A stretch of 64,000 nt of DNA from Chloroflexota bacterium (GTDB taxonomy: Bacteria; Chloroflexota; UBA6077; FW602-bin22; JACPRP01): the NCBI GenBank assembly GCA_023480885.1, contig JAMCWX010000072.1, positions 10,628 to 74,627 on the forward strand. The letters are read 5' to 3'. The notes beneath the pieces are model-generated. The model was not told the DNA's origin, ran no database searches, and was given only the letters and a program-made list of their open reading frames with translations. The translations under genes and the position numbers were made by a program. Shown piece by piece: positions 18,050 through 25,486 of the stretch. The first letter of the stretch is position 1, and each line of letters starts with the position of its first letter.

Positions 18050-19189
18050 GTGAAAACAAGAAAAGCCGTCCTGGCGAAACCAGCAAAATTCGTCTTCAAA
18101 CCGGGTGCAGCCACGCTTCGGAAGGACGATTTGCCAGTTATGATCGAAAGATTGACCGCTGAGTACGATGTAGTTGCACCCGTTGTGAGAGATTTCTCAA
18201 TTGCTCTGGAGAAAATCAAGTCCGCGAACGAGTTGGCCAGAGGATATCGAGACGTCCAGTCGCCAGGGCGGTACGTCCTGGAGAAGACTGACGAGCCGAT
18301 GATCTTCACGTACGCCAATGGCCAGGAATCGCCGAAGAAGTTTATTCATCCCTCTCGACTGCTCATGTTCAAAGGCGCCAGGAAGGATGGCTTGTTCGAC
18401 GTAATCGAGGAAGATGAGCCGGAAAGAAAGCTCGCCTTTTTCGGCATACGTCCCTGCGACCGGCAATCGATCCTGGTGCTGGATCGGACGTACATCACGG
18501 ACCATCCTGACCCTTACTATCTGAGGCGGAGAGGAGACGCGTTTGTTGCCGTCGTCAACTGTACACGACCAGGAGCCACGTGCTTTTGTGCGTCGATGGG
18601 CACCGGACCCAAAGCAGATCGCGGCTTTGACATCGCGCTGACGGAGCTGGCGGACGCGTTTTTGATCGAGCCTGGCAGCCCGAAGGGAATGGCGATGATG
18701 AGCAAGTTGCCAACAAAGCCAGCTACCCAGGCTGAACTGAGTCAGGCAGGATTCTGGATCGAAGACGCCTTGCTTCATATGGGCCGGACATTGAATACGA
18801 CTGACCTGCCACAGATTCTGCTGCGCGAGCTGGACCATCCGCACTGGGACATCATGAAGGATTGGTGTGTGGGATGCACCAACTGCACGATTGTTTGCCC
18901 CACGTGCTTCTGCTATACGATTGCCGACAAGGTAGACCTTAGCCTGCAGTCGTTCAAACGCGAGCGTTACTGGGATTCGTGTTTCTCCTGGCAATTCACC
19001 GAGGTTCACGGCTGCAACTTCCGCGAGAACCTCAGGCAGCGCTATCGCCACTGGGTATGCCACAAGCTCAGTTACTGGGTTGAACAGTACGGAGTCTTTG
19101 GCTGTGTCGGCTGTGGGCGCTGCATCACCTGGTGCCCAGTGGGAATCGACATCGTCGACGTCGCTACCACCGTTCGGGGAGGTGTCTAA
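18050..19189 (+). CDS. hydB: Group 3b [NiFe]-hydrogenase (sulfhydrogenase) beta subunit, 4Fe-4S
   Basis: [40 protein letters not shown]. Confidence 0.88.
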
Positions 19190-20022
19190 TGGCAAACCCT
19201 CTAATGCCCTTGCCTGCGCAAATCATCGACGTTGAGACAGAAGGAAAAGACACACTGACCTACACTCTCGCTTTCAAAGACAAGGAAGTTCAGAGGCAAT
19301 ACCGTTACAAGGCTGGCCAGTTCAACATGGTTGGCTTTTGGGGCGAGGGGGAAGCGCCTATCTCGATGAGCTCGGACCCGGCGGAACACGGTTACTTCCA
19401 ACACACCGTGAAGGTGCTGGGGAACATAACTAGATCGATGGGCCGTCTGAAGGAGGGCGACATCATAGGCGTGCGCGGCCCGTACGGAACTTGCTGGCCT
19501 TTGGAGGAAGCCGCCGCAAGAGACATCTTGATCGTAGCTGGCGGCATAGGCTTTGCCCCACTGCGACCTGTCATCGAACACATAATTGGCAATCCTAGCG
19601 TCTACGGCAAGTTGACCGTGCTTTTCGGTGCAAAGACGCCGCAGGACATCCTGTTCACGCGAGACTTTGATCGGTGGCGGTCGAGGCCTAACGTCGAGCT
19701 CGTGCTGACAGTCGACCGGGTTGACGGGCAGAAATGGGAACACAACATAGGCGTGGTACCAACCTTGTTCGAAAAAATCAAGCTGGATGCCAAGAACACT
19801 GTCGCTATGCTTTGCGGCCCCGAGATAATGCTGCGCTTTTGTCTCGTCGATCTGATCAAGCGCGGCTTTCCGATGAATCAGTTGTTCATTTCGATGGAAA
19901 GGCGGATGAGCTGTGGCACGGCACAATGCGGCCACTGCTTCTTTGGACCAAAGTTCGTCTGCCGTGACGGGCCAGTGTTTCGGTTCGCCGAAGTCTACGA
20001 CTTGATGGGAAAGGGGGTATGA
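19189..20022 (+). CDS. hydG: Sulfhydrogenase gamma subunit, FAD/NAD(P)-binding with 2Fe-2S
   Basis: GQFNM, RGPYG, AGGIGFAPLR, CGPEIM, MSCGTAQCGHC...VCRDGPVF. Confidence 0.9.
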   Translation: MANPLMPLPAQIIDVETEGKDTLTYTLAFKDKEVQRQYRYKAGQFNMVGFWGEGEAPISMSSDPAEHGYFQHTVKVLGNITRSMGRLKEGDIIGVRGPYGTCWPLEEAAARDILIVAGGIGFAPLRPVIEHIIGNPSVYGKLTVLFGAKTPQDILFTRDFDRWRSRPNVELVLTVDRVDGQKWEHNIGVVPTLFEKIKLDAKNTVAMLCGPEIMLRFCLVDLIKRGFPMNQLFISMERRMSCGTAQCGHCFFGPKFVCRDGPVFRFAEVYDLMGKGV

Positions 20023-20026
20023 ACTG

Positions 20027-20809
20027 ATGTCAGCCAAACCTAAGCTTGCGGTATGGAAATTCTCCTCCTGCGACGGCTGCCAGTTGTCGATTCTCGACTG
20101 TGAGGAAGAGCTGCTCGACCTGGTTGGCTCGTACGAGGTTTCGTACTTCCTCGAGGCCAGGAGGGGTTTCGACCCCGGCCCGTATGATGTTTCACTGGTC
20201 GAGGGATCGGTGAGCACGCCCGAGGAAGTCGAACGGATCAAGATGGTTCGCCAGCAGACGAAGTACCTCATTCCTTTCGGCGTCTGCGCCACGTGGGGAG
20301 GCATCCAGGCGCTGCGCAATTGGTCCGATGCGGAGAAGATGAAAGCGATGGTCTATCCCAAAGCTGAGCACGTGAAGGCGCTGCCTACCTCGACTCCCAT
20401 CTGGGCTCACGTCCCGATTGAATATGAGCTTCAGGGCTGTCCTCCCAATCGCCACCAGTTGGTCGACCTCTTGGGGAAGTTACTGTTGGGGCAGCAGCCG
20501 CGTTTGCCGACGAACAGCGTGTGTCTCGAATGCAAGCGCAAGGGGAATATATGCGTGCTCGTTGCCCAGAACATGCCCTGCATGGGACCAGTTACGCACG
20601 ACGGCTGTGGCGCCCTTTGTCCCACGTATAACACTGGATGCTACGGTTGCTTTGGCCCGATGGACGACCCGAAGCCTGAGCGATTTGCCAGGGAACTAGA
20701 AGTGCGGGGGATGCGCGGGCCAGACATAGTCAGGGAGTTTAAGCGCATTACCAGCTATGCTGATGGCTACAGGAAGGGAGCAGAGCTTTATGAGCGAGCG
20801 GCGCATTAA
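20027..20809 (+). CDS. hydD: Sulfhydrogenase delta (small) subunit
   Basis: KFSSCDGCQL, EGSV, GVCATWGG, GCPP, SVCLECK...CMGPVT..GCGALCP...CYGCFGP. Confidence 0.9.
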   Translation: MSAKPKLAVWKFSSCDGCQLSILDCEEELLDLVGSYEVSYFLEARRGFDPGPYDVSLVEGSVSTPEEVERIKMVRQQTKYLIPFGVCATWGGIQALRNWSDAEKMKAMVYPKAEHVKALPTSTPIWAHVPIEYELQGCPPNRHQLVDLLGKLLLGQQPRLPTNSVCLECKRKGNICVLVAQNMPCMGPVTHDGCGALCPTYNTGCYGCFGPMDDPKPERFARELEVRGMRGPDIVREFKRITSYADGYRKGAELYERAAH

Positions 20810-22091
20810 GATTGATTACCTGGCCAGAGTGGAGGGAGAGGGCGCTCTAGACATCAAGGTATCGGACGGCAAAGTCGAGGATGTCAAGCTGGCCATCTTC
20901 GAGCCGCCGCGATTGTTCGAAGCGTTTCTGGTCGACAGATCCTATGACGAGTTGCCCGACCTGACCGCGCGCATCTGCGGCATATGCCCGGTCGCGTACC
21001 AGATGAGCGCGGTGCACGCCGCGGAAAAGGCATTTGGCGTAAAAGTTGGGGGTTCAGTGCGGCAATTGCGCCGGCTGTTCTACTGTGGTGAGTGGATTGA
21101 AAGCCATACGCTGCACATCTATATGCTGGCGGCTCCGGACTTCCTGGGCTACGACAGCATCATCTCGATGGCCAAGGACTTCCCCGAAGAAGTGAAGCGC
21201 GGCTTGCGGCTGAAGCGAGTCGGCAACGAAATCGTCGCCACGCTTGGAGGCAGAGAGATTCATCCCATTTCGGCGTGCGTCGGCGGGTTTCATAAGACAC
21301 CTTCGCAGGAGGCTCTCGCTCCATTAGCTGAGAAACTGAGACAGGCCAAGCAGGACGCCTGGGACACCGTTCTATGGGCGGGTTCGTTGGATGCCCCTGA
21401 TTTCACTCGCGACATCGAGTTTGTCGCGCTGTCGCACCCTGACGAATATCCTATGAACGAGGGTCGGCTAGTGTCGAGCCGGGGCTTGAACGTTGAGCAG
21501 GAGGAGTTCGAGCAATACTTCCAGGAATACCAGGTGCCGCATTCCAATTCGCTGCAGTCGGTAGCTTTGGGCAACCGCGCTTACTTTGTCGGTCCGTTGG
21601 CCAGGGTGAATCTTAACTTCGACCGGCTATCGCCAGTGGCCCAGGACGCTGCGCATAGGAGCGGGGTTAAGTTCCCTAACAAGAATCCCTTCGCGAGCAT
21701 CGTCGGCAGGGCAATCGAGGTTCTGCACTGCGTGGACGAGGCGCTGTCCATTATCGAGTCCTACAAGCCTCCCAAGAAATCCATAGCTGATTTCAAGCTC
21801 CGAGCGGGCATTGGCGCAGCCATCACCGAGGCGCCCAGAGGCATTCTTTATCATCGCTACCGATTCGACGATCAAGGATTGATCCGTGAGGCCAAGATCG
21901 TGCCCCCAACCGCGCAGAACCAGCGCCAGATCGAGGAGGATTTGCGGGAGTTCGTGCCCACGCTCTTGCACCTCCCGCAAGACGAGATGACGCGCCGGTG
22001 CGAGTGGGAGGTGCGCAACTACGATCCCTGCATTTCGTGCTCGACGCACACGCTCAAAGTGAGAATAAATAGGGATGGAGAGGCGAGGTAA
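20790..22091 (+). CDS. hydA: Group 3b [NiFe]-hydrogenase large (alpha) subunit
   Basis: ARVEGEG, L1 motif RICGICPVAY, EAPRG, L2 motif DPCISCSTH followed by a C-terminal extension. Confidence 0.93.
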   Translation: MSERRIKIDYLARVEGEGALDIKVSDGKVEDVKLAIFEPPRLFEAFLVDRSYDELPDLTARICGICPVAYQMSAVHAAEKAFGVKVGGSVRQLRRLFYCGEWIESHTLHIYMLAAPDFLGYDSIISMAKDFPEEVKRGLRLKRVGNEIVATLGGREIHPISACVGGFHKTPSQEALAPLAEKLRQAKQDAWDTVLWAGSLDAPDFTRDIEFVALSHPDEYPMNEGRLVSSRGLNVEQEEFEQYFQEYQVPHSNSLQSVALGNRAYFVGPLARVNLNFDRLSPVAQDAAHRSGVKFPNKNPFASIVGRAIEVLHCVDEALSIIESYKPPKKSIADFKLRAGIGAAITEAPRGILYHRYRFDDQGLIREAKIVPPTAQNQRQIEEDLREFVPTLLHLPQDEMTRRCEWEVRNYDPCISCSTHTLKVRINRDGEAR

Positions 22092-22114
22092 CGAGGGCGA
22101 TTCTGCCGCTTGGC

Positions 22115-22180
22115 GGGCGCAATTCATTGCGCCCCTACACGAAGGACGCCAATAATGTAGGGGCGCGATTTATCGCGCCC
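22115..22180. repeat. Inverted pair of GTAG-family REP palindromes (REPIN-like)
   Basis: GGGCGCAATTCATTGCGCCCCTAC (22115-38) and GTAGGGGCGCGATTTATCGCGCCC (22157-80). Confidence 0.75.
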
Positions 22181-22220
22181 GAGAGCCCGGGCGAGTGACT
22201 AAAGCTCAATGCCTGCTGCG

Positions 22221-23522
22221 CTAGGGCTCATTTATTTTGCACCAACGCAAGTCAACCTTAGATTCAGCAAACGTCGGCACAAACTCGGCTCTCGAGTTCA
22301 CGATGCGGTTCCCGAGACGTGAATAACAGCCCGCCCATTTCTCGCTTGCGACGTAGCCCCCCACTGTGGCCAGCCGCATCCTCTGCACCGGGCGTCCCTG
22401 CCAGTCCCATCCGACTGAGGTGAGCGGTGCGGTCTCCACAAACTGTTGGACGATGAAAGTGCCCCATTTCCTGCACTGCTCCCAATCGGCATCAGACATA
22501 GCGTCGCCGAAGTATACCTCGTCGCCTTCGCGGCCGAACACCTGCTTCACGACCGTCTTGTTGAGATCGACGTCTCCTGGCAAATCCCGAACCCACCAGG
22601 TCGGTGGCAAGTGCCGCTTGATGGCCTCTTGCTCTTCAGGCGAGAACAACGGCTCGTCTCGCCGTGCCCAAATCCAGGCGAGCAGACCTTTGTTTTGGAG
22701 AAGCATTCCGCGTAGCCCGTTCAAGAGCGTCAATCGTCCAGAGGTGACGGCTTCAACTATCGTATAGAACTGTGGCAGCGCCAGCATCGCCTCGTAAGTA
22801 ACGTAGCGGTAGAGAGCGTCGATGGGTTGCCCGACAAGCGATACCCTTCCGCCACGAGATTCACGAAGGTTGTCGATGTCTCCCAAAACGGTTTCGACGC
22901 CATCGGCAGCCAATGTGGTGCGAATAAGCCGCTCGGTGTAAGCCATGTGGCCAGTGTCTTCCTTGTCAGAGGCATCGGTGAGCAGTCCGAGGCGGACCGG
23001 GCGCCTGTCGGACTGCAAAGCGGCGCCGATAGCGGCTAGCCTCCGTGCTGCTAGATCGCCGTTGACGCGTGCCCCCTTGAAGTAGGGCCGAAGCAGTTCA
23101 AACGCCACCTCGTCAACCGCCGTCGCTTCACGAAAGCCCGCGGGTGTATCGCAATTGTACTCTAAGAGCTGCCAGCGGCTTGAGCTATCGAGCAGAAAAT
23201 CGAAACGCCCGAAGACGACTGGCCTTGGTGGTTCCTGGTGCAGTAGCTCGGCGAAGCTCCACGGAAAGCCGAAAGCCAGCAGCGTGTCCACATCTTCCGC
23301 GACGTGCTGGCCGGCGATGGCGAAGACGCGGGCCAGACGGGTTGAAAGCTCTGCCAGTGAGGCCAGCTCGGATTGGCTGAGAATCAACGCGTTCAAGCTC
23401 AGATAAGGCCCGTCGCTGCTCACTGTTGTGCCAGCCATACAGCCGCGGAAAAGGGCGCGACGAAAGAAGCGTCGGTACAAAGAAGGCGATATCTCGTTCG
23501 GCCGGTCAAACAGCACTTTCAT
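22221..23522 (-). CDS. Glutathionylspermidine-synthase-like ATP-grasp ligase (YgiC/YjfC-like)
   Basis: GRFDFL, LLEYNCDTP, QNKGLLAWIW, VKQVFGREG, IVQQF; ATG at 23522 avoids overlap with the upstream gene. Confidence 0.88.
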   Translation of the reverse strand: MKVLFDRPNEISPSLYRRFFRRALFRGCMAGTTVSSDGPYLSLNALILSQSELASLAELSTRLARVFAIAGQHVAEDVDTLLAFGFPWSFAELLHQEPPRPVVFGRFDFLLDSSSRWQLLEYNCDTPAGFREATAVDEVAFELLRPYFKGARVNGDLAARRLAAIGAALQSDRRPVRLGLLTDASDKEDTGHMAYTERLIRTTLAADGVETVLGDIDNLRESRGGRVSLVGQPIDALYRYVTYEAMLALPQFYTIVEAVTSGRLTLLNGLRGMLLQNKGLLAWIWARRDEPLFSPEEQEAIKRHLPPTWWVRDLPGDVDLNKTVVKQVFGREGDEVYFGDAMSDADWEQCRKWGTFIVQQFVETAPLTSVGWDWQGRPVQRMRLATVGGYVASEKWAGCYSRLGNRIVNSRAEFVPTFAESKVDLRWCKINEP

Positions 23523-23542
23523 TAAGCGATCCCACTGTCCCC

Positions 23543-24169
23543 CTATATCGGCGGCACCCACACGCGTGTAACTGCCAACCCTGCTCGCGATAGCTCTCCT
23601 GTGATGTACTCCACGTCTTCTGGCGCATGATGGTAGTGAGCCGCGACACCTACCGCTTCGACTCCCCATTCCAGCAGCATCCTGGCCGATGGCAAATCAT
23701 CCGTCGAATACACATAACGATTGTCGAACTTGTGCTCGACGGCGTCGGGGTGTGGCAAAGTCTGCCGCTCGGCGTCGAGCAGGAACACTATGCCGCGAGG
23801 CTCGGCTGGCGGGCGGAGTTCGGCGGATAACCAGATGAGTTGGGCCAGAAGAGAGTCAACTGGCAGAGCAGGCCGCTCCGTTGGCCAACGAGACATAACT
23901 GGGACCACCAGCCAGCGTTCCTCGTGGAATGCTAGCGTAGTAGCCAGTCCCAGGTCCGGTGGAAGGTCGAGCAACAAAGCGACCCTGCCTCGCGCCGAAT
24001 CGAAGAACGGCAGGATCGATCGCTCGATGGCTGTTCTTGCTGCGTCGAGTGGCAGGGGAGCGCGGTGGCGTGAGGTGTGCACGAGGAAGGGCATCGCGGC
24101 TACGTATTGCCAGAATGGACCGGCGGCCCTCGTCCAGGCGAGGTACGCCCTCAACTCAGCGCGGGACAT
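23543..24169 (-). CDS. Hypothetical alpha/beta protein
   Basis: 208-aa ORF inside the operon; LLDLP, FLLDAER, FDNRY...DDLPS. Confidence 0.75.
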   Translation of the reverse strand: MSRAELRAYLAWTRAAGPFWQYVAAMPFLVHTSRHRAPLPLDAARTAIERSILPFFDSARGRVALLLDLPPDLGLATTLAFHEERWLVVPVMSRWPTERPALPVDSLLAQLIWLSAELRPPAEPRGIVFLLDAERQTLPHPDAVEHKFDNRYVYSTDDLPSARMLLEWGVEAVGVAAHYHHAPEDVEYITGELSRAGLAVTRVWVPPI

Positions 24170-24368
24170 CGGATCGGGAATCCAACTGGTCTAGTTGCTT
24201 CTCGCTTTCGGTCAAGATCGACCAGAGCTCGCGTCGTTCCACGTCTCGCATGTGGGGCAGCAGAGTCAACCAGCGCTTCTTCAGCACTGGATCGAGAAAC
24301 CGAGTCTTGCGAACAGCCTCGGCGATGGTCTTGGTATCCAGTTGGTCTCGGTTTGCTCCTTGTGACAT
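24156..24368 (-). CDS. Small helical hypothetical protein (70 aa)
   Basis: Fills the operon gap, overlaps the next gene by 14 bp, amphipathic composition. Confidence 0.65.
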   Translation of the reverse strand: MSQGANRDQLDTKTIAEAVRKTRFLDPVLKKRWLTLLPHMRDVERRELWSILTESEKQLDQLDSRSDVPR

Positions 24369-24400
24369 GGCAACGCCTTCACGCGGTCAATTATATCCGA

Positions 24401-25486
24401 TTACGACGAGCTTTTGCTCGAGCTTCCACCCTTCCCTGATGAGAACCCACTCGAACTCGGGGCTTTGACCCCAGACGATCCGCCTGACTTGCCGGTTGCT
24501 GCCGAGCCAGACCCTGTGCCACTGCTCATTCCAGAGGTAGCGCGGCCCGATTTGCCAGACACCGCGGATCCTGAGCCGGTGCCGCGATTCATCCCCGAAA
24601 CGGCGCTGATAGTCCGCTCGCCGAAGGGCTTCGGCGAGTCCGAGGGCACGCTCCCGCGTAAGGGCTGGTTTGCGGCGATGTCTGATCCGCTCGGCGGATC
24701 GCGAAAGGCAGGACGAGAGGCCGTGGGGTCGGTCCTGGGCGCGGAGTTAGTCCAGATTACCATCGGGTACCATGGCGAGTGATAATAGCCGAAGTACCCC
24801 GGATAATAGCTGTGGTAGACGTAGCGGTTGCTGGAGTCTGGCGTTGGCGTGGGCGTTCCTGTGCCCGACGTTTGGCCCGATGTAGTCTGCTCGCCAGGCC
24901 AGACGAGCGAGACTGGAACGTCAGGAGGCAGCGCCAGCACCGGCTCGCCTTTATCCGTGATCGAAAGCTCGGTTTGATCGCCTGTAGCCTGAACGAGTCG
25001 CAGCCCTGTGACTGAGGCCGTTTGGTAATTATTGCTTTGCGGATCGAACCAGTCGAAGGAGTAAATGCCCCGGTGGTCGCGGGTGACGCTTTCTGGCTTG
25101 ACCTTATACTTCTGTGAGCTGTCCTTGGGCAGCCCCTCGGATATCTCTGCCGTTAGCTCAGGGGTTTGGTCGACCACGATTTGGTCGCCGTCCGGCGGAG
25201 ATGAGTCGGTTTGGCTATCGACGTCGTCGCAGGCCACCGTAAAGAGCGCCAGCATTCCGACGACGACCAACGATGCGACCAGGCGTATCTGTTGGGCGGC
25301 CTTATGTCTCAAGGAGTTTCCGACGCGGTTGCTGAGGTCGTGAAGCCTGCTGAGCGCGTTTTTGGCAAGGGCTCGATGGGCAGGACTCTTCTGGACGATA
25401 TCCTTGATAAAGGCTAATGACCGGTTGCGCCGGGAGGCGGCACGCCGTGAAGCCTGCCTTGCTCGCTGTCTCTTCCCGTTACCCAT
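24401..25486 (-). CDS. Putative lipoprotein with a Gly/Ser/Lys-rich repeated tail (DUF1190/YgiB-like architecture)
   Basis: GGAGG RBS, long basic N-region, hydrophobic stretch, lipobox-like TVA-C, Tyr-rich segment, tail SSSGFSSGKGG. Confidence 0.78.
   Translation of the reverse strand: MGNGKRQRARQASRRAASRRNRSLAFIKDIVQKSPAHRALAKNALSRLHDLSNRVGNSLRHKAAQQIRLVASLVVVGMLALFTVACDDVDSQTDSSPPDGDQIVVDQTPELTAEISEGLPKDSSQKYKVKPESVTRDHRGIYSFDWFDPQSNNYQTASVTGLRLVQATGDQTELSITDKGEPVLALPPDVPVSLVWPGEQTTSGQTSGTGTPTPTPDSSNRYVYHSYYPGYFGYYHSPWYPMVIWTNSAPRTDPTASRPAFRDPPSGSDIAANQPLRGSVPSDSPKPFGERTISAVSGMNRGTGSGSAVSGKSGRATSGMSSGTGSGSAATGKSGGSSGVKAPSSSGFSSGKGGSSSKSSS

Follow-up and report, generated by a model that had tools for sequence, protein, structure and literature searches.

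A conserved Chloroflexota operon is a variant of the YgiB-YgiC / YjfL-YjfM-YjfC module and encodes a Gly/Ser-tailed lipoprotein as the candidate substrate of its ATP-grasp ligase

This study concerns a four-gene operon on the minus strand of a 64,000-nucleotide stretch of a Chloroflexota genome (assembly GCA_023480885.1, contig JAMCWX010000072.1; the whole analysed stretch is hereafter called the window). Its open reading frames (ORFs), in the order A-C-B-ligase, encode a predicted lipoprotein with a Gly/Ser tail (A), a small protein (C), an unannotated alpha/beta domain (B), and an ATP-grasp ligase, with 32 bp between A and C, 14 bp shared by C and B, and 20 bp between B and the ligase. An earlier sequence-only reading of the same DNA had given exactly these co-directional genes, coordinates, and spacings, and had put the operon forward as the window's best candidate for a novel system; the latter claim is not upheld here, as the operon proved to be a variant of the known YgiB-YgiC / YjfL-M-C module of Escherichia coli. 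We propose, at a confidence poised midway between acceptance and rejection, that the ligase caps the free C-terminal carboxylate of the co-encoded lipoprotein with a polyamine, B probably presenting the tail before export.

The four genes are real and more than a chance association, forming a conserved set that travels together. Of 60 related genomes, 24 gave a ligase match, a strong one in 23 cases, and the 20 relatives' ligase loci taken from those 24 genomes carried B in 20 cases and C and A in 19 cases each, in the same order as in the window, so that the co-occurrence elsewhere on which the earlier reading had made its proposal depend was found; the single locus without the full set stops at a contig edge. 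A GTDB-wide scan with the ligase alignment yielded 78 loci from the best 80 of 104 matches, and its 54 Chloroflexota-type loci overlap the 20 relatives' loci. B lies upstream of the ligase in 45 of the 48 Chloroflexota loci with enough sequence, and C is present in 26 of the 45 that were testable. An even sample of the phylum contained B in 13 of 301 genomes, all from the window's class, a count that understates the range of B because Chloroflexia loci of the GTDB-wide scan also carry it. The module appears to be split across the genome in several lineages. No ligase match was found in the only same-family genome searched (G001, 86% complete), and a related-loci search from the single ligase sequence gave no match.

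The ligase matched the GSP_synth family (PF03738) well above the curated threshold (105.2 vs 29.3 bits), and the match covers positions 19-369 of the 371 in the profile. It is a single domain without a fused amidase (CHAP) domain, the sole PF03738 copy in the genome, and the only one of the four operon proteins with a Pfam family match; none of the four matched NCBIfam. A second, weak ligase match in the same contig lies antisense to an ABC ATPase gene and was discarded as noise. The motifs R106-x-D108, E121-x-N123, K278, K326, and G330-R-E-G333 are all in place, as the sequence-only reading had reported along with the missing amidase. In an alignment with glutathionylspermidine (GSP) synthetase, GspS, the residues R316, D318, E330, N332, K498, K533, R538, and R598, whose catalytic roles we take as given, correspond to R106, D108, E121, N123, K278, K326, R331, and R402 of the ligase; the spermidine-binding E391 corresponds to E188, and the D387 and E392 positions to D183 and D189, with E188 and D189 kept in all 20 aligned close relatives. 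The DTP motif is as in YgiC, unlike GspS. A profile built from 20 close ligases matched YgiC (7uk8) in the PDB at E 5e-19, YjfC at 2e-9, and GspS at 5e-8; a single-sequence phmmer search of the PDB gave no match. In a FastTree phylogeny rooted on GspS, the Chloroflexota ligases grouped at 0.80 and a clade from other phyla at 1.00, the two being joined apart from YgiC/YjfC at 0.75, a weak support that implies no donor. Judged by residues and profiles, the ligase is a YgiC/YjfC-type ATP-grasp enzyme that stands closer to YgiC/YjfC than to GspS, in line with its earlier placement, and the automatic database label of glutathionylspermidine synthase for these genes is probably wrong.

The chemistry of this fold family is described for GspS, in which ATP phosphorylates the peptide C-terminus to an acyl phosphate that is then attacked by the N1 amine of spermidine, Glu391 binding spermidine and Ser337 assisting the amine attack (PMC6272389). 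The earlier reading had credited YgiC and YjfC with ATPase activity and no GSP synthesis; the lack of GSP synthesis stands for YgiC, but the ATPase-only view is outdated, since a review (PMC11762307) assigns YgiC a peptide-spermidine ligase activity and calls its physiological substrate an open question, an account of the activity that recurs in PMC12568646 and PMC12506659. The RefSeq annotation of E. coli K-12 names both YgiC and YjfC peptide--spermidine ligase. Triglycine was reportedly the peptide used by Pederick in 2023 for YgiC and YjfC.

The likely substrate is the tail of A. This protein has a lipobox-like TVAC with the lipobox cysteine at Cys86. A conserved helical leader (residues ~45-85) precedes that cysteine; a small beta-rich domain (~111-200) and an aromatic segment come after it, and the protein closes with a disordered Gly/Ser tail whose last residue is Ser. 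Its structural model has a predicted local distance difference test (pLDDT) score of 85-96 at residues 111-190 and under 50 over most of the tail. Ala85/Cys86 and Phe348/Ser349 are invariant in 19 aligned A sequences. Neither Pfam (E<=1) nor NCBIfam gave a match for A, and a structure search returned rows that span the N-terminal helices only and hardly cover the beta domain. The earlier description of the lipoprotein as repeat-tailed holds in that two 20-residue units (297-316 and 318-337), compared by eye, are identical at 14 of 20 positions, but the repetition is modest and was not picked up by the DNA repeat scan. Three forms of the lipoprotein occur: the window type, a longer type whose domain is a different one, and, in Chloroflexia, a short peptide with two cysteines. 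All three retain the lipobox and the Gly/Ser tail while the folded domain varies by lineage. In the Chloroflexia-labelled loci L091-L107 the lipoprotein is ~110-190 residues long with two cysteines and a Ser-rich tail and C is missing, and an APH/choline-kinase-like gene often lies 3' of the ligase in Chloroflexia-labelled loci (6 of those tested). In one genus a small ORF of its own, lying between A and C, encodes a homologue of the A leader (L034:4738-5196 and the equivalents in L035-L039). Instead of being a simple signal peptide, the A leader may fold and serve for docking.

The ends of the tails are not random. Phe348 of the (S/G)GFS motif of A stands 14 residues from the C-terminus, and a Phe falls at -13 to -17 in 26 of 30 long-type Chloroflexota tails; Ser is the last residue in 20 of these 30 (background 38%) and in 12 of 13 short-type tails (36%), L082 having been left out of the count as an N-run breaks its gene. 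Among 37 distinct tails from outside Chloroflexota, G[ST][FWYLV]xR occurs at -12 to -8 in 22, and Gly is last in 28, vs 27% Gly in the preceding 19 residues. The E. coli YjfM and YgiB tails close with GG and bear a GGY/GGF motif, at -13 and -25. The constant spacing of a motif from the stop, which an enzyme working on the terminal carboxylate would be expected to recognise, combined with a preferred last residue, points to the free C-terminus as the substrate. The A tail is the best candidate substrate of the ligase, a role that the sequence-only reading had also suggested.

The conserved residues of B are D68, R135, DNRY at 149-152, and P160. No consistent Pfam match was obtained across 28 B members, and sequence and profile searches of the PDB gave no match (best profile E 0.22). 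The AlphaFold model is a single alpha/beta domain (pLDDT 95, predicted template modelling score 0.92) for which Foldseek returned nothing at E<=0.001 and VIA a best Z of 5.6 (root-mean-square deviation 3.8 over 111 aligned residues); the neighbours returned, such as RNase J, helicase RecA domains, and chelatases, were generic alpha/beta folds (all Z<=5.6), and the ESM Atlas offered no lead. Searched against 1.84 billion representatives, the B profile matched 1,517 clusters (50% identity) at E<=0.001. By these profile matches B is an unannotated, widespread domain family and a new component of the module.

Of 119 ligase homologues, 6 carry B as an N-terminal fusion; B also stands in front of the ligase in 3 of 8 long matches checked among the top 150, and is fused C-terminally in L109 and L110, two Bacteroidota-labelled bins; in P0156 the leader of A, C, and B are joined in one protein (read by eye). 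Some of these fusions are possibly assembly read-throughs. Of 23 loci from outside Chloroflexota, 15 match the un-iterated profile (E 1e-9 to 1e-20), with B either next to the ligase or part of it. These matches together with the ligase adjacency speak against drift of the hidden Markov model as the source of the distant matches. In the phylum of one Myxococcales-labelled locus, 20 of the 201 genomes sampled gave B matches, which proved real in 18, and 16 of 20 real B places in this Myxococcota sample have the ligase directly upstream; the weak matches L153 and L154 lie in unrelated genes and were dropped. In the phylum of one Bacteroidota-labelled locus, B occurs in 9 of 201 genomes, and in 8 of these it adjoins the ligase or is fused to it. 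Within Myxococcota, Bacteroidota, and Planctomycetota, B sits inside a tailed protein of the twin-arginine translocation (Tat) type within a DUF350-ligase-tail operon, and outside Chloroflexota it mostly forms the main part of a larger protein that has both a signal peptide and a Gly/Ser/Arg tail; by a crude rule applied without a control, a twin-arginine-like signal is present in 28 of 37 such proteins and a lipobox in 12 of 37. The B proteins L149-L152 and L156 of the Myxococcota sample lack a recognizable signal peptide, carry no more than a short GGFG...GG tail, and are possibly a cytoplasmic version of the substrate. Because it is fused to the ligase or lies inside the tailed protein, B is tied to both partners, contrary to the earlier view of the 208-residue ORF as unrelated to the system; and because it is free without a signal, or ligase-fused, in Chloroflexota, it must be able to act in the cytoplasm. 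An adaptor role would fit both the free or ligase-fused B and the B that rides in the substrate, and an enzyme role would also be compatible.

C is an accessory component of the Chloroflexota module. It has a conserved 40-residue core in which W33, L48, and L52 are invariant, but no family match, and the ESM Atlas gave leads under 0.9 only, with one of 0.85 pointing to an unnamed cluster from Chloroflexota. In 16 loci the gene 3' of the ligase is an unannotated fifth gene, and a half-length DUF350 gene (~70 residues) lies convergent at the cluster end in 15 Chloroflexota relatives' loci; in the window genome the two stand together and in the same direction on another contig, C34:79311-80253 (L172:3812-4754), where the fifth gene encodes 230 residues with an N-terminal membrane anchor predicted by eye and the half-DUF350 is a weak match (24 bits vs a cut-off of 26). 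The fifth gene was considered as DUF4178 or YjfK/DUF2491 and rejected, with no Pfam match and no match to YjfK. Of 14 loci tested from outside Chloroflexota, 11 have a full DUF350 gene as the immediate upstream neighbour of the ligase. The absence of DUF350 noted earlier is correct for the window, where no such gene was found, but only in part for the genome, with its half-length DUF350-like gene, and for the clusters of its relatives. A search of the genome with PF06693 (DUF1190) found nothing while controls matched, and the window operon contains no PspA, DUF2170, or DUF2491 gene.

The host is a soil-type Chloroflexota bacterium whose genome encodes TatC and Lgt. Genes for a pyruvoyl arginine decarboxylase, a DHS-like protein (SpeY), and an arginase-family ureohydrolase stand in a row on C23 (L171:882-3348). 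Caldilinea aerophila has the same gene arrangement, and its SpeY, together with a ureohydrolase, gave homospermidine in E. coli (PMC13625781). Homospermidine is the likeliest local polyamine because the C23 cluster matches this arrangement, and the host likely makes it. A promoter scan of the operon was uninformative.

Gene order, conservation, family assignment, active-site residues, B fusions, and non-random tail ends were seen directly, and the proposed mechanism builds on them. In the cytoplasm, the ligase would bind the tail of A, probably helped by B, and ATP would phosphorylate the terminal carboxylate of A to an acyl phosphate, as in the chemistry of the GspS family. A polyamine, in this host probably homospermidine, would then attack the acyl phosphate to leave an amide at the C-terminus of A, and the capped protein would be exported and lipidated, its capped tail serving in the envelope. 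Since Tat exports folded protein, capping in the cytoplasm beforehand would be possible. The tail as substrate, homospermidine as amine, B as adaptor, the cytoplasmic capping before export, and the envelope role are the parts that we infer. A wider generalization, in which GSP-type ligases and B in several phyla read the stop-spaced motif and amidate a terminal Gly or Ser with a polyamine (homospermidine in Chloroflexota) before export, is put forward more tentatively, as we lean somewhat against its holding in full.

Several observations weigh against capping with a polyamine. Neither spermidine synthase (PF01564) nor PF16653 was found in the 88.7%-complete genome, and spermidine was reportedly the sole effective one of the common polyamines for E. 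coli YgiC/YjfC (Pederick, 2023). The position of GspS Ser337 is Ala128 in the window ligase, a position that among 120 sequences was Ser in 115 and Ala in 2, with 3 unmatched by the pattern; the second Ala-type ligase is the closest relative (69% identical), and activity or amine choice may differ in the window ligase. A has no canonical Tat motif beside its hydrophobic stretch, a point that bears on how a cytoplasmic ligase would meet the tail, and the Tat-signal rule used for the other phyla had no control. B is not nearby in 3 of 48 Chloroflexota ligases (L077, L092, and L108), for 4 of the 20 B genes from Myxococcota the 1.5 kb directly upstream hold no ligase on the same strand (one of the 4 is a tandem copy), and L109 and L110 are ligase-B fusions without a tail. 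The tail sequences come from related genomes and are not independent tests, so that binomial values overstate their significance. L077, L092, and L108 are ligase orthologues without B, C, or A nearby, and L077 retains the fifth gene and the half-DUF350.

Some of these points are shared by other explanations. The tail could be the acyl donor and the acceptor an amino acid, a cell-wall precursor, or a lysine in a protein such as B, C, or that of the DUF350 gene, so that a covalent tether or crosslink would result: a ruler-like tail would suit any nucleophile, this ligase clade has extra dedicated partners in B, C, the fifth gene, and the half-DUF350, and the absence of a spermidine synthase match and the replaced amine-assisting Ser would be accommodated. 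We nevertheless consider such an acceptor unlikely, as the acidic residues of the GspS polyamine pocket are kept, the closest solved relatives use spermidine, and the host has a likely homospermidine pathway. Equally improbable in our estimation is a small, diffusible peptide-polyamine product, its substrate perhaps made by B as an enzyme, which the lipoprotein would bind or display by means of a tail that is a flexible linker. The compact, confidently modelled alpha/beta fold of B, its invariant D68, R135, D149, and R151, which are clustered in sequence and could be catalytic, and the tail-less fusions of L109 and L110 would suit such a product; however, a linker would need neither constant spacing between a motif and the stop nor a preferred last residue, and in many phyla B belongs to the exported tailed protein.

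It is less probable still that the family works as proposed and the copy in the window genome is weakened or repurposed. Ala128 in place of a near-universal Ser, the displacement of the fifth gene and half-DUF350 from the cluster to another contig, and the lack of a ligase match in G001 would agree with decay, but the four ORFs are intact, the remaining listed active-site residues are kept, and the 69%-identical homologue also has Ala. An ordinary glutathionylspermidine synthetase, to which the Pfam GSP_synth match and the automated database names point, is very improbable given the greater proximity of the ligase to YgiC/YjfC than to GspS, the missing amidase domain, the YgiC-like DTP motif, and the report, in PMC11762307 and PMC12506659, that YgiC is without this activity. 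C-terminal capping of the lipoprotein tail with a polyamine thus remains our preferred reading.

The features of the operon are collected in Table 1. The ligase start was taken as the ATG at 23522, as the longer ORF from 23669 would overlap B. The operon is flanked by a convergent [NiFe]-hydrogenase gene on one side and a divergent S4/FtsJ methyltransferase gene on the other. The inverted repeat beyond the ligase stop is possibly a terminator, perhaps bidirectional, or a REP-like element; it was not called by the terminator scan. The hydrogenase gene belongs to a cytoplasmic [NiFe]-hydrogenase operon of four genes (window 18050-22091) convergent on the ligase, the large subunit of which matches PF00374 and which is presumably sulfhydrogenase-like, judging from its motifs.

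Table 1. Positions in the window of the operon genes, the parts of A, and the adjoining repeat
Feature	Position	Strand	Remarks
Gene A, predicted lipoprotein, 361 aa	24401..25486	-	Likely substrate of the ligase
A leader: helical hairpin, hydrophobic stretch, and lipobox, residues 45-86	25229..25354	-	Conserved in relatives
A tail, residues 297-361	24404..24598	-	Two 20-aa repeats, then (S/G)GFS motif
Gene C, small protein, 70 aa	24156..24368	-	Conserved core, without family match
Gene B, alpha/beta domain, 208 aa	23543..24169	-	Unannotated family
YgiC/YjfC-type circularly permuted ATP-grasp ligase, 433 aa	22221..23522	-	PF03738 match
Inverted repeat, 26 bp, 85% complementary	22114..22181	.	Between ligase stop and convergent hydrogenase gene

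On the physiological substrate of YgiC/YjfC-type enzymes, an open question according to PMC11762307, the variant offers a clue at the sequence level in the stop-spaced motif and the preferred last residue, and this clue recurs across several phyla although the folded domains that precede the tail are unrelated. The B family adds 1,517 clusters with a confident model and no clear solved relative. If the proposed capping is true, it would be a new bacterial post-translational modification, the C-terminal polyamine amidation of a surface protein; it would place a cationic tip or tether on a surface lipoprotein, explain the substrate of the YgiC family, and possibly provide a tool for site-specific labelling. 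A search of the literature, in which subscription journals were thinly covered, brought up neither this architecture nor a modified YgiB-type tail.

Among known systems, E. coli GspS (Gss) shares the synthetase fold family and the conserved ATP, metal, and amine-pocket positions, whereas the window ligase differs in having no amidase, a weaker profile match, other peptide-site residues, and an operon centred on a tailed protein. The operons of Ravi et al. 2024, which combine PspA, CesT-Tir, DUF350, DUF1190, and GSP-synthetase-like ATP-grasp genes and for which a polyamine link to membrane function was proposed, likewise unite an ATP-grasp peptide ligase with DUF350 and a surface lipoprotein; in the main-text passages compared, their partners are DUF1190, DUF2491, DUF4247, DUF2617, and band-7, unlike the Tat-exported tailed B and the Chloroflexota form (PMC11237479). 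The nearest counterparts are E. coli YgiB-YgiC (tolC operon) and YjfL-YjfM-YjfC (yjfIJKLMC; PDB 7UK8/7UK6), annotated in K-12 as ygiB-ygiC and yjfL-yjfM-yjfC with DUF1190 lipoproteins and DUF350 proteins as the partners of the ligase. The Chloroflexota operon departs from them in that A is not a DUF1190 family member despite its similar anatomy, a near-obligate B, an accessory C, and a fifth gene are added, the tails are mostly Ser-terminated in place of the GG ends of YgiB and YjfM, the DUF350 is of half length and convergent or unlinked, and its ligase falls in a clade separate from YgiC/YjfC (FastTree 0.75). It resembles them in its stand-alone GSP_synth ligase without an amidase, in an adjoining lipoprotein whose N-region is long and basic and whose Gly/Ser-rich tail bears a GGF/GGY-type motif, and in the linkage of DUF350 in relatives, and it is accordingly a variant of the YgiB-YgiC / YjfL-M-C module rather than a new kind of system.

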